The position numbers were made by a program, and so were the translations under genes. The notes under the pieces are model-generated. The model was not told where the DNA came from and did not search any database. It saw only the letters and a list, made by a program, of their open reading frames with translations. A DNA stretch of 42,379 nt, from the UHGV virus genome UHGV-1834803. One strand, 5' to 3'. Shown here piece by piece: positions 37,532-39,016 of the stretch (position 1 is the first letter of the stretch; the number at the start of each line of letters is the position of its first letter). The DNA comes from a virus.

Positions 37532-37918
37532 ATGTCTGATAACAAGATTGAATTTATAGAAAGTCGCTACGCTGCTTTTATCGCAGGGTTGATTGAATCC
37601 TCACCTATGAGCCAGGCCCAGATAGCCAAAACAATTGGGTATAAAAACGCCAACAACCTTTCTTTAATTAAAAGCGGCAAAATTCCTTTGCCTATCGATA
37701 AGGTTCGTCCGCTGGCGCTGGCACTGGGCATTGAGCCAAGTCGTCTTATGATGATGGTGCTGGAAGAACGCCAACCCGAACTCGCAGCATTTTTATACAA
37801 AGAAGGCACTGCTCCTCTTAACGAGGACGAAAAACAGGTTCTTGCTGCATATAACGAGCGATTCGGTAAAGAGAAAGGCGCATCACAAAAGGTTGTTGAG
37901 GCCATAAAGTCTCTATGA
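37532..37918 (+). CDS. HTH (XRE-like) transcriptional regulator
   Basis: Helix-turn-helix-like segment MSQAQIAKTIGYKNANNLSLIKSGK; 3' end overlaps the integrase gene by 6 nt. Confidence 0.55.
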   Translation: MSDNKIEFIESRYAAFIAGLIESSPMSQAQIAKTIGYKNANNLSLIKSGKIPLPIDKVRPLALALGIEPSRLMMMVLEERQPELAAFLYKEGTAPLNEDEKQVLAAYNERFGKEKGASQKVVEAIKSL

Positions 37919-39016
37919 AAAATTTACACGAATAAGCTCTGTTGATAGACGATCTCCCTTAAATTTGTGGTCAATTTCGTCTAAATCCGGTTGCTCTACG
38001 ATTGATGCGATGTACGTCGAGAAACTTTCTAAGGCGTCTCGCATCTCGTCCATATAATCGTGCCGGTCGTAGACCCGATCTATCCCCTCAAGACTGTGGT
38101 TCATGATTTTACGTGATACCTCCTGGCTTATGCCTAATGCTGGGAAGTAACTACGCGCAGTACGGCGCAAATCTCGGGGTGTAAATGGCTCAAGCTCCAT
38201 CAGTTCTGGTCGTTCCAGAATACGACGTAATGCCTGGGCTATTGCCACTTTAGACATAGGAAGGTCTTTCCCGATTTTTTTATTCGAAGGCACGAGCCAC
38301 TGGCTGTCTTTACCATATTCGAACAACTCTTCAATACAAGTGCGCATTAATGAGCTTAAAGGCAGAGAATGCTCACGGGCAGATTTGTTCCTCTTGCCTT
38401 GATTCCAAACCCCACGCTTAAGATTGAACTCACTTTTTTTAGCCCGCAGTACTTCGTCAGGTCGTCTTGCGGATACAAGACATAGCCTGGCCGCCCATTT
38501 TGTACCAGCACACACATTGAAGTAGTCCCATATATTCCAGAACACCCATACCTCTGCGTCGGTCAGCTTCCGCTCGCGAGGTGTGGGCTTTGCGCCACCG
38601 GCAACTTTGTTAAGTGACATATCGTTTAACGGTGACACGTCTATCATCCCCTGGAAGGCGCACCAGCTAAGGAACTGCTTCATCAGAGAGAAAACGCGGC
38701 GGCCCATAACAATTTTGCCATCCAGTATTAGTGGGTTGACCAGTTGGTTCACCATGAACCTATTAATGTCACTTACTTTTACATCGGCAATGTGCGGCAA
38801 AACATGTATCAAAATACAATGAACAGCGATCTCTGGCCGACGTCTGGTTATCAGCAGAGATAAGCGAGTGAATAACATGAATGCGTCCGAGAATCTCATG
38901 TCATTGCTGACCTGGGAGATCATAACGGCCTGCATTTGAGATGCTCTTTCGAGATACTCTATCGCCTCTTTTGAGGTGTTCTCCGCAGCGCGTGCTCTGT
39001 CAAAGCTATTTTTCAT
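37913..39016 (-). CDS. tyrosine recombinase / phage integrase
   Basis: C-terminal catalytic signature: SARRPDEV (Arg), PRDLRRTA (H/R box), MNHS (His), VYDRHDY (Tyr). Confidence 0.8.
   Translation of the reverse strand: MKNSFDRARAAENTSKEAIEYLERASQMQAVMISQVSNDMRFSDAFMLFTRLSLLITRRRPEIAVHCILIHVLPHIADVKVSDINRFMVNQLVNPLILDGKIVMGRRVFSLMKQFLSWCAFQGMIDVSPLNDMSLNKVAGGAKPTPRERKLTDAEVWVFWNIWDYFNVCAGTKWAARLCLVSARRPDEVLRAKKSEFNLKRGVWNQGKRNKSAREHSLPLSSLMRTCIEELFEYGKDSQWLVPSNKKIGKDLPMSKVAIAQALRRILERPELMELEPFTPRDLRRTARSYFPALGISQEVSRKIMNHSLEGIDRVYDRHDYMDEMRDALESFSTYIASIVEQPDLDEIDHKFKGDRLSTELIRVNFS

Follow-up and report, generated by a model that had tools for sequence, protein, structure and literature searches.

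A tyrosine recombinase gene with a lox-like palindrome and a convergent regulator gene on an SSU5-type phage-plasmid: a candidate multimer-resolution system

In a 42,379-nt stretch of viral DNA (UHGV virus genome UHGV-1834803; here called the window) a gene for a tyrosine recombinase, routinely labelled 'integrase' (int), runs into the end of a gene for an XRE-like HTH regulator. The label raises the question of what such an enzyme does for the element that carries it. Does it insert the phage into a host chromosome, as was supposed in the preliminary description of a lysogeny/integration module near a tRNA-Ser gene, or does it serve the element in another way? The features from which an answer was sought are listed in Table 1.

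Table 1. Features of the int/HTH region and their positions in the window
Feature	Position	Strand	Details
orf70	37068..37280	-	70 aa; phrog_2627, function unknown (PHROGs); divergent from the HTH gene
Predicted HTH promoter	37458..37485	+	TTTACA-16-TAATAT
Candidate operator palindrome	37487..37500		GGTAAGCACTTACC; just after the predicted HTH promoter
XRE-like HTH regulator gene	37532..37918	+	128 aa; ORF list
Stop-region overlap of int and HTH genes	37913..37918		CTATGA, 6 nt, convergent
Tyrosine recombinase gene ('integrase', int)	37913..39016	-	367 aa; ORF list, Pfam
LexA-box-like 20-mer	39043..39062	-	TACTGTTTACTTATACAGTG; CTGT-N8-ACAG, 16/20 to consensus
Predicted int promoter	39062..39090	-	-35 TTGATC (39090..39085), 17-nt spacer, -10 TAATAT (39067..39062)
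Candidate recombination (lox-like) site	39115..39147		perfect 13-7-13 palindrome, AATGATTCCATAC-ATAGTAG-GTATGGAATCATT
tRNA-Ser(tga)	41102..41188	-	ARAGORN; followed by tRNA-Thr, Tyr and Asn

The convergent gene pair and its element

The ORF coordinates agreed with the preliminary description in that int and the HTH gene converge, with a 6-nt overlap. Within it each stop codon is complementary to the final sense codon of the opposite gene, TGA closing the HTH gene and TAG closing int. Because of this overlap there is no room for an intergenic terminator, and the transcripts of the two genes must collide. The tail-to-tail packing is no chance feature of the window: it was kept in every phage-plasmid relative with a homologous HTH partner (overlaps of 6, 6, 9, 11 and 16 nt, a 0-nt gap and 9-nt gaps) and persisted down to 44% identity of the recombinases.

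That the partner of int is an HTH regulator was borne out by the match of the 128-aa protein to PHROG_8 'transcriptional regulator' (1.3e-11); the Pfam match to HTH_19 was weak (E 7.8e-4) and fell below the cut-off. The protein is 100% identical to CYRAN_45, annotated as 'putative repressor' in the phage-plasmid Cyrano, and CYRAN_45 was transcribed 10x above background in the Cyrano lysogen (PMC9928086). No S24/peptidase domain was found on it by Pfam. The candidate operator next to its predicted promoter has a 12-nt core, GTAAG-N2-CTTAC, that was kept in all seven aligned sequences, with 11 of the 12 positions invariant; sequences related to the operator palindrome lie at 3809, 15577 and 29240. 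Upstream, orf70 heads the leftward cobT-cobS-dnaE block and, being conserved in position, is a third member of the int/HTH module. Homologues of int, the HTH gene and orf70 are all absent from the Salmonella phage SSU5, in which the equivalent of window positions 37068..41679 is missing. Pfam detected no excisionase-type domain on the HTH protein and gave no match at all for the orf70 product; a small novel directionality factor near int is possible.

The window belongs to an extrachromosomal phage-plasmid of about 110 kb, of the SSU5/pHCM2/pMT1 type (SSU5 supergroup, pSLy3/Cyrano type; group names after PMC11652158). Its identity was 99.8% to the E. coli plasmid CP057127 (109.6 kb) and 97.9% to Cyrano. 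The features of the supergroup were found in the window and CP057127: siphovirus genes, the DnaE/CobST block and an iteron replicon, which in the window consists of 14 iterons around a 404-aa ORF (21246..23001). Phage-plasmids of the SSU5/pHCM2/pMT1 type were present in 252 of 5,426 complete E. coli genomes. In these genomes the int/HTH module was located at 254 places, every one of them plasmid-borne; no chromosome had it. Three contigs of 0.2-0.9 Mb carry a Citrobacter homologue of the recombinase. A 34-kb Photorhabdus record, at one point taken for a phage-free plasmid with the int-HTH pair, was dropped because its flanks hold tail genes.

Recombinase, palindrome and LexA-like box

The 367-aa protein matched Pfam Phage_integrase (PF00589) with an E-value of 2.9e-10 (40.6 bits, cut-off 27.1). 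Among the 119 annotated features of CP057127 its gene is the only one annotated as a site-specific recombinase, and the recombinase was found in more than 900 plasmid records. A literature search found no paper addressing the function of the gene. The protein is made up of a core-binding and a catalytic domain and lacks an arm-binding domain. Its family, 340-380 aa long and 44-100% identical, is carried by phage-plasmid contigs of about 100-110 kb and by megaplasmids of 437-723 kb. The next relatives outside the family were at most 34% identical, and all had the arm-binding domain PF13356. No match to PF13356/DUF4102 was obtained by Pfam with the window recombinase or was present in the precomputed Pfam annotation of family members; in the alignment the N-terminal block occurs in the outgroup only.

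The preliminary description had credited the enzyme with an intact catalytic signature, and this needed one amendment. Residues R185, K211, R284, H307 and Y316 were conserved in the family alignment, but Arg281 (RDLRRT) takes the place of the first HxxR histidine in all 21 aligned members, whereas most P4-like outgroups have the histidine. Across the range of 44-100% identity Tyr316, both arginines and Lys211 were invariant and His307 nearly so. The replacement by Arg281 appears to be a conservative departure, and judged by its aligned residues the protein is plausible as a catalytically active tyrosine recombinase. An AlphaFold model (pLDDT 86) had lambda Int (residues 75-356) as its best Foldseek match (E 3e-7), and lambda Int, XerH, Tn1549 Int and IntI were all matched with a probability of 1.00. 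The model predicts a two-domain lambda-Int/Xer/Cre fold. By sequence, a phmmer search of the PDB gave no match to solved recombinases.

The lox-like palindrome is situated 99-131 nt upstream of the int start codon, and none of 100 shuffles equalled it. A perfect palindrome with an asymmetric 7-nt spacer was found 50-175 nt upstream of the recombinase gene at 20 of 20 related loci. The full palindrome is present once in the window and as a single copy in the 109,591-bp CP057127; an inversion switch at the palindrome was ruled out on the ground that there is a single full site per plasmid. Two classes of arms were distinguished. Class A, TGATTCCATAC, accompanied recombinases at least 57% identical and class B, TGACTCCAGAC, those of 44-50% identity. 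Two positions set the classes apart, the same ones in either arm, and the spacers vary freely. Judged from these alignments, the arms covary with the recombinase clade, non-phage megaplasmids included. In such megaplasmids of Pantoea, Rahnella and Erwinia the palindrome and the recombinase gene occur together, without the HTH partner. Since the site travels with the gene even there, a plasmid rather than a phage function is indicated.

When 185,579 species genomes were searched for the pattern TGATTCCATAC-N7-GTATGGAATCA, only seven loci were found, all on contigs of at most 169 kb and beside an int homologue. Additional matches to the arms, a 15-mer in dnaE (33084..33098) and half-sites in CP057127 and SSU5, were considered as sites and rejected, all of them being coding sequence. 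Their contexts are the ATG ATT CCA TAC ATC start of a small ORF and CMESLE in dnaE, and they were treated as unexplained coincidences.

Between the palindrome and the int start codon lie the predicted int promoter and the LexA-box-like sequence, which begins at the last base of the -10 hexamer. Both hexamers of the promoter were conserved across genera; its score was under the threshold of the consensus scanner. The window has no other CTGT-N8-ACAG, and across the whole of CP057127 two boxes scoring at least 16/20 were observed, this one included, against 0.01 expected. It was conserved in six genera, including Yersinia, Salmonella, Klebsiella, Kluyvera and Serratia, and was absent from the phage-plasmids of Xenorhabdus and Providencia and from the megaplasmids.

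Published RNA-seq of strain LF82 is consistent with this arrangement. Transcription of int in Cyrano was about 5x above background in LB and rose from log2 5.6 in LB to 10.3 after 6 h in macrophages (PMC9928086). In the same data host sulA rose from 7.1 to 9.85 and CYRAN_98, the other gene with a LexA box, from 7.2 to 12.2, with CYRAN_55 and CYRAN_99 remaining flat (PMC9928086). Cyrano int thus tracked the SOS genes sulA and CYRAN_98, a correlation seen in macrophage infection.

A candidate resolution system and its alternatives

The plasmid status of the element, the genes, the palindrome, the LexA-like box and their conservation and covariation, all of which were established by computation, are best explained by an SOS-tuned, Cre/loxP-like multimer-resolution system, possibly serving genome cyclisation as well, that is paired with a putative repressor. 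We assign this reading a probability of roughly 0.6. Since no copy of the module was found on a chromosome in the complete E. coli genomes, the recombinase most likely keeps the plasmid monomeric by means of the lox-like palindrome, and it is in this sense that we infer recombination at the palindrome and a multimer-resolution role. A dimer of the 367-aa protein would bind the palindrome upstream of its own gene and would join two directly repeated sites in plasmid multimers, possibly also in the terminally redundant infecting genome. The products would be monomeric circles fit for partition. Because the LexA-like box overlaps the int promoter, LexA would be expected to bind there, so that the lysogen would contain a basal amount of the enzyme and more of it would be produced in the SOS response. 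The 128-aa HTH protein, expressed in lysogeny and encoded divergently from the orf70-cobT-cobS-dnaE block, would act as the putative repressor.

Of 17 tested predictions that paired a Y-recombinase with a palindrome close by, 8 proved active (PMC10250229), and the covariation of arms and recombinase, as deduced from the alignments, adds support beyond that base rate. A need of a resolvase for SOS induction is not obvious, and this counts against the resolution reading. So do the arginine at the first HxxR position throughout the family, the lack of the LexA-like box in the Xenorhabdus and Providencia phage-plasmids and in the megaplasmids, and the existence of a few contigs of 0.2-0.9 Mb with a homologue.

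It is improbable that the recombinase and its site mainly swap or capture accessory segments between related plasmids and in this way make the variable region beyond the palindrome, even though several observations suit such an exchange. E. coli plasmids that are 100% identical on the int side turn unrelated exactly between positions 39147 and 39148. Four right flanks were seen beyond the palindrome (none, a yafO toxin pair, other small genes), the caf1 capsule operon abuts the site in Y. pestis pMT1, and the orientation of the spacer relative to int differs between lineages. However, there is no second site at the far end of the variable segments, where homology resumes in grx and again after a 420-aa ORF, like in ordinary moron slots, and each plasmid has one full site. 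A conserved functional element beside a plastic region would, moreover, yield an equally sharp boundary. Because homology restarts inside grx without a second site, the sharp break at the palindrome was downgraded as proof of exchange.

Another explanation, which we consider unlikely, assigns the decisive role to transcription. Once LexA is cleaved, derepressed transcription from the int promoter would pass through int, cross the HTH gene in antisense and continue into orf70-cobT-cobS-dnaE, lowering the amount of repressor and starting the early genes. If this were true, read-through would make a non-cleavable repressor responsive to DNA damage, and the 'integrase' gene would double as the induction trigger of widespread clinical phage-plasmids (E. 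coli, Klebsiella, pHCM2, pMT1). The HTH protein lacks the S24 peptidase domain, yet Cyrano was induced 39-fold by ciprofloxacin (PMC9928086). The conserved tight packing without room for a terminator fits this scheme, as does the location of int, orf70, cobT, cobS and dnaE on the same, minus, strand. In macrophages int went up 25-fold and orf70 85-fold, and the HTH transcript stopped rising between 1 h and 6 h (PMC9928086). However, the argument is purely architectural. cobT was up only about 6-fold, and no Cyrano virions were detectable in macrophages despite the rise of int (PMC9928086). The HTH gene contains, on the int strand, a weak terminator-like hairpin (37692..37676), which follows the conserved SLIKSGKIPLP codons and is only weakly kept in relatives. 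Xenorhabdus and Providencia retain the gene pair without the LexA-like box, and the real trigger could be the second LexA-box gene of the plasmid or an unidentified antirepressor.

The symmetric changes of the arms fit an operator or an RNA hairpin too, so the palindrome could also, or instead, be either of these. That it is only an operator or hairpin for int or its neighbours, with the recombinase reduced to a relic or a DNA-binding regulator, we regard as very unlikely. The palindrome does lie in the promoter-proximal region of int, and such a protein would resemble the tyrosine-recombinase-fold repressors of SPbeta-like phages, two of which, YopR and SroF, were among the weak fold matches. 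The YopR match, though, had an E-value of 8.5e-3 as against 3e-7 for lambda Int. The invariance of Tyr316, both arginines and Lys211 and the near invariance of His307 would be unexpected in a non-catalytic binder, and arms of 11-13 nt around a variable spacer of fixed length, 7 nt, have the geometry of a recombinase core site.

There remains integration, in which int would place the phage in a host gene, for instance that for tRNA-Ser, and the HTH protein would be a regulator or an excision factor. All annotations call the recombinase 'integrase', its closest relatives with an arm-binding domain belong to the P4-type integrases, and enzymes of that type commonly target tRNA genes. The distance of about 2 kb to a tRNA-Ser gene given in the preliminary description was confirmed, ARAGORN placing the gene 2,086 nt from the int start, and so was the statement that no att repeat is visible in the window. 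A search with the 3'-end of the tRNA-Ser gene (25 nt, up to 3 mismatches) found only the gene itself within the window, and none of the direct-repeat families of the window involves it. The tRNA cluster is carried on the plasmid in relatives too; tRNA-Ser is an element-borne gene, and the proposal that it serves as the attachment site has to be given up. Integration or excision is strongly disfavoured by these results, by the absence of chromosomal copies among the 254 E. coli occurrences, by the missing arm-binding domain, by a symmetric candidate site with no copy on large contigs among the 185,579 species genomes, and by the literature, which treats such elements as non-integrative (PMC12977533). 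Of the proposed lysogeny/integration module the lysogenic, plasmid-prophage side is upheld by the transcription of the Cyrano HTH homologue in the lysogen, and the integration side is not upheld.

Comparison with known systems

The results on recombinase and site leave current understanding standing; what they probably correct is the logic of annotation, since the routine 'integrase' label implies a chromosomal integration that the data do not support. Phage-plasmids of the SSU5/pHCM2/pMT1 type are common in clinical E. coli, Klebsiella, Salmonella and Yersinia pestis and bear virulence and resistance cargo. The resolution reading supplies concrete sequences that can be mutated in studies of plasmid stability and induction. 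The region beside the palindrome, where pMT1 has its F1 capsule operon, is flagged as cargo-variable. For genome engineering the arm classes A and B with their 7-nt spacer are a candidate orthogonal lox-like pair from a non-Cre lineage.

The closest sequence relatives outside the family, at 25-34% identity, are P4-type phage and island integrases (DUF4102/Arm-DNA-bind_3). They have in common with it the central Phage_int_M domain, the HDLRRT/RDLRRT box and the C-terminal VYDRHDY motif. The present family lacks their N-terminal arm-binding domain, is about 60-90 aa shorter and was found only on plasmids and phage-plasmids; its candidate site is symmetric, whereas theirs is an attP with arm sites.

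With the integron integrase IntI, an SOS-regulated tyrosine recombinase with a LexA box in its promoter, int shares a LexA-like box at its predicted promoter, and the IntI structure 2a3v was among the fold matches. Unlike in integrons there are no folded single-strand sites of the attC type and no cassette array here; the site is a duplex palindrome.

ResD/rfsF of F and Rsd/crs of Salmonella virulence plasmids are plasmid-encoded tyrosine resolvases with the site beside the gene. The present system is like them in having its candidate target just upstream of the gene, in its large low-copy plasmid and in the monomerisation proposed for it, no homology being claimed. Unlike them, the family extends to phage-plasmids, has an HTH gene as partner and carries a LexA-like box.

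Cre/loxP of P1 is similar in design: there too a low-copy plasmid prophage carries one tyrosine recombinase, and near its gene lies one site, made of two inverted 13-nt arms and a short asymmetric spacer. The roles of Cre/loxP in P1 are multimer resolution and cyclisation (PMC7969092). Here, however, no sequence relationship to Cre was detectable by phmmer against the PDB, Foldseek gave E-values of only 0.015-0.07 with Cre as against 3e-7 with lambda Int, the spacer has 7 nt instead of 8, the arms are unrelated to those of loxP, and a LexA box is predicted at the int promoter.

The recombinase tools Panto/pox and Nigri/nox and the YR series were likewise predicted from a lox-like intergenic palindrome near a Y-recombinase gene, and about half of such predictions were active. 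Those enzymes are of the Cre type with 13-8-13 sites, whereas the present family is not of the Cre type. Identity with the Pantoea-derived Panto/pox was ruled out, Panto being a Cre-type enzyme 41% identical to Cre and pox a rox-like 13-8-13 site.

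Plasmid nature of the element

The 4 kb surrounding the recombinase gene (int) and the convergent HTH gene were 99.8% identical, over the full length, to the 109.6-kb E. coli plasmid pRHB36-C16_2 (CP057127), about 98% identical to Escherichia phage Cyrano, which is the phage-plasmid pLF82 of strain LF82, and matched hundreds of other non-mobilizable plasmids of about 110 kb. Genes for siphovirus tail, capsid and terminase proteins are present in the near-identical CP057127, and the window contains a DnaE/CobS/CobT block and nucleotide-metabolism genes. The iterons and the 404-aa ORF flanked by them, which had no NCBIfam match, look like a RepA-type plasmid replicon, with an arrangement like that of incC/repA/incA in P1. 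E. coli elements of this type have been assigned to the pSLy3 group, SSU5 supercommunity (PMC11652158, PMC12977533, PMC7969092).

Features of the int region and of the putative replicon
Feature	Position	Strand	Description	Basis
HTH gene	37532..37918	+	128 aa	ORF listing and sequence
int (recombinase gene)	37913..39016	-	367 aa	ORF listing and sequence
LexA-like box	39062..39043		TACTGTTTACTTATACAGTG; directly after the -10; 16/20 to LexA consensus	
Promoter-like pair	between palindrome and int start codon		-35 TTGATC, 17-nt spacer, -10 TAATAT; conserved	
Palindrome	39115..39147		perfect 13-7-13 palindrome AATGATTCCATAC-ATAGTAG-GTATGGAATCATT; candidate recombination site	
tRNA-Ser(tga)	41102..41188	-	2.1 kb from int start	
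Putative iteron replicon	21246..23001		14 copies of GTATGCTGTCAGCGGT flanking 404-aa ORF (21248..22462, +)	Repeat search

The int-HTH segment was found at 254 places in 252 of 5,426 complete E. coli genomes, all plasmid-borne and none chromosomal. The preliminary description had read the gene pair as a lysogeny/integration module with tRNA-Ser as a possible attachment site. Integration was not borne out by this distribution, nor by a scan of host chromosomes for a partner site (see below). The tRNA-Ser gene does lie about 2 kb away and is followed by tRNA-Thr, Tyr and Asn genes, but it does not qualify as an attachment site, because the tRNA cluster is carried as part of the plasmid by Cyrano and other relatives and the 3' end of tRNA-Ser has no second copy within the window. 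The lysogeny half of the reading fared better. In Salmonella phage SSU5, cobT directly follows tRNA-Asn, and there is no equivalent of 37068..41679, which comprises orf70 (a 70-aa ORF), the HTH gene, int, the palindrome, grx and three tRNA genes (5026..5262 of SSU5 locus L033). The block is thus dispensable for virion production, which supports the reading as a lysogeny-side module; the recombinase itself is taken as real. Absence of the block may explain the lytic-isolate behaviour of SSU5.

Other features of the window were recorded. Between the tRNA-Ser and tRNA-Thr genes, 101 nt (41195..41295) match the upl/plp region of phage P1 and its relatives at 99% identity, implying that P1-like and SSU5-like phage-plasmids have recently exchanged DNA at their tRNA regions. 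The strain-variable slot between grx and tRNA-Ser, which holds different genes in Cyrano and other plasmids, is occupied by a 420-aa ORF of low GC content (39647..40909; 32-37%) with no Pfam or NCBIfam match, belonging to phrog_18168 and giving a very weak PtuB-like PADLOC match. A 96-aa ORF (42073..42363) similar to the C-terminal signalling region of methyl-accepting chemotaxis proteins is labelled 'C-type natriuretic protein' in relatives and is kept in SSU5 (SSU5_048). Palindromes of the form AAACAAnTTGTTT recur at 2180, 2909, 13139, 24578 and 36989, and a conserved leader, AAAGGAAAAACACATG (RBS plus start), heads several minus-strand genes and operons (13105, 20143, 24076, 29151, 33347, 34761); taken together, the two suggest a shared regulatory or translation-initiation signal.

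The convergent genes and their products

The convergent ORFs and the 6 nt they have in common were confirmed in the ORFs and in the sequence. The 128-aa protein matched Pfam HTH_19 weakly and falls in a large PHROGs family, 'transcriptional regulator'; an identical protein was named putative repressor by the Cyrano authors (PMC9928086). Its homologues are encoded by contigs of phage-plasmid size (~100-116 kb), except for one cluster also including an 897-kb contig. The HTH partners of phage-plasmid relatives are homologous to it (32-65% identity), and tail-to-tail packing with the recombinase is kept wherever such a relative has the partner, the two genes overlapping by up to 16 nt or lying up to 9 nt apart. 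In Chimaeribacter loci the convergent neighbour of int is a different, unrelated gene; in three phage-plasmid-like contigs (L009, L011, L014) the protein encoded convergently is 221 aa long, and a LexA-like box precedes its gene rather than int.

Divergent from the HTH gene lie orf70 and the cobT-cobS-dnaE block, a layout resembling an immunity region. Downstream of the predicted HTH promoter comes the palindrome GGTAAGCACTTACC. Its 12-nt core is shared across genera, and related copies are found at three further intergenic positions of the window. Described as an imperfect palindrome of ~20 nt, ATAGrTAAGCACTTACyTAT, this element has four intergenic copies (3809, 15577, 29240, 37484), one of them, with the cross-genus conserved core, just downstream of the predicted -10 of that promoter. 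These copies are candidate operators of the HTH protein or of another repressor.

Pfam Phage_integrase matched the 367-aa protein with a score exceeding the gathering threshold, and the central domain gave a weaker match. A search of 5.8 billion proteins delineated a compact family (44-100% identity, 340-380 aa) encoded on contigs of ~100-110 kb in Escherichia, Klebsiella, Enterobacter, Salmonella, Yersinia pestis (pMT1), Citrobacter, Serratia, Xenorhabdus, Photorhabdus and Providencia, and on 437-723-kb megaplasmids of Pantoea, Rahnella and Erwinia. Beyond it, similarity falls abruptly to at most 34%; those proteins are P4-type integrases (360-464 aa), all of which have the PF13356 arm-binding domain, whereas the family lacks it. 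The catalytic signature, earlier called intact, is nearly so: R185, K211, R284 and Y316 are invariant in the alignment and H307 almost so, but throughout the family arginine replaces the first histidine of the HxxR box (RDLRRT). The AlphaFold model (pLDDT 86) consists of core-binding and catalytic domains; a sequence search of the PDB found nothing. In CP057127 this is the only gene annotated as a site-specific recombinase.

The palindrome upstream of int

The palindrome lies between the grx terminator hairpin and int, 99 nt ahead of the int start codon. It occurs only once in the window (none in 100 shuffles) and is single-copy in CP057127. In all related loci examined, the recombinase gene was preceded by the same architecture at a distance of 50-175 nt: Y. 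pestis pMT1, Salmonella, two Klebsiella groups, a Pantoea megaplasmid, Kluyvera, Buttiauxella, Chimaeribacter, further E. coli plasmids, Serratia, Providencia, Xenorhabdus, Photorhabdus, Rahnella and Erwinia. The spacer is constant in length (7 nt) and variable in sequence (yTnnnAr), and the arms are invariant inside each clade. TGATTCCATAC arms (class A, the window's type) go with recombinases at least 57% identical to the window's, and TGACTCCAGAC arms (class B) with those 44-50% identical; between the classes two positions change, and they are the same two in each arm. In one genome per species (185,579 species), the class-A site occurred at seven places only, on contigs of at most 169 kb and each time beside an int homologue, with no partner site on host chromosomes. 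Megaplasmids have kept gene and site with no HTH partner and no phage genes nearby, which argues that the two serve a plasmid function. Predicted pairs of Y-recombinase and nearby palindrome were active in 8 of 17 experimental tests (PMC10250229), and the covariation of arms and recombinase raises the odds above this base rate. We therefore regard the palindrome as the likely target of the recombinase.

Exact 11-15-nt copies of one arm were also seen in coding sequence (window 33084..33098; CP057127 22408 and 23420; SSU5 locus L033 3825), in number above the chance prediction for 11-mers. They sit in dnaE (CMESLE) and, with the sequence ATG ATT CCA TAC ATC, at the beginning of a conserved ~50-aa ORF (SSU5_047; CYRAN_38 by position).

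On the far side of the palindrome the plasmids vary. When 39148..39245 was compared with three other loci (L001, L021, L022), identity was 100% on the int side and divergence complete from the first base past the palindrome, apart from a weak TTTTTTGAAtTCTGA motif retained ~10 nt past the arm. Among the inserts are a yafO toxin pair and, in Cyrano, CYRAN_43, expressed 723x above background (PMC9928086). In pMT1 the F1 capsule operon (caf1A, caf1; 1229..2402 of locus L003) ends about 630 nt from the palindrome, so that the main virulence cargo of pMT1 occupies the variable slot next to the site. Two observations hint at site-linked cargo exchange: otherwise identical E. coli plasmids abruptly cease to be homologous precisely at the palindrome's outer edge, and caf1 lies next to the site in pMT1. 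However, no second site is present at the far ends of the variable segments.

Expression and proposed function

The LexA-like box is the only CTGT-N8-ACAG in the window. Two boxes scoring at least 14/20 were found in the whole of CP057127 (chance expectation for at least 16/20, about 0.01); the second (19/20; CP057127 80258..80277, outside the window) precedes a gene for a 129-aa S24/UmuD-like protein. Its Cyrano counterpart by product name and position, CYRAN_98 (S24 peptidase/UmuD-like), is strongly up-regulated in macrophages (PMC9928086). The int box is kept in E. coli, Yersinia, Salmonella, both Klebsiella groups, Kluyvera and Serratia, takes the form CTG-N10-CAG in Buttiauxella, and is absent from the class-B phage-plasmids and megaplasmids compared. 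In published LF82 RNA-seq (log2 values; S1 and S4 tables of PMC9928086), Cyrano int (CYRAN_44) rose from 5.6 in LB to 10.3 after 6 h in macrophages, host sulA from 7.1 to 9.85 and CYRAN_98 from 7.2 to 12.2, while CYRAN_55 and CYRAN_99 were flat. This parallel rise lends correlative support to an SOS link. Since int and the HTH gene were about 5-fold and 10-fold above the Cyrano background in LB (PMC9928086), both are expressed in the plasmid state.

Because of the overlap each transcript must enter the other gene, and int shares the minus strand with orf70, cobT, cobS and dnaE. Transcription of int, once released from LexA, could therefore hinder expression of the repressor and continue into the early operon, which would account for the ciprofloxacin response (39-fold induction of Cyrano; PMC9928086) of a putative repressor with no peptidase domain. 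We consider such a switch improbable, as the case for it is purely architectural, the transcript would meet a weak terminator-like hairpin, the cobT rise in LF82 was small (PMC9928086), and class-B relatives have no LexA box.

In the literature searched, neither the site nor the LexA box nor the function of this recombinase was described. The best-supported mechanism is a plasmid multimer-resolution system, to which we assign a probability of about 0.6; this and the rating of the target rest on the conserved site, its covariation with the recombinase, the restriction to plasmids and the 8/17 base rate. The recombinase would be a P4-lineage integrase that has lost its arm-binding domain, and the predicted LexA control would have been acquired in the enterobacterial clade. 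In fold, the model is best matched by lambda Int residues 75-356 and only weakly by Cre; in function, recombinase and palindrome would correspond to Cre/loxP of P1, resolving multimers and perhaps also serving cyclisation.
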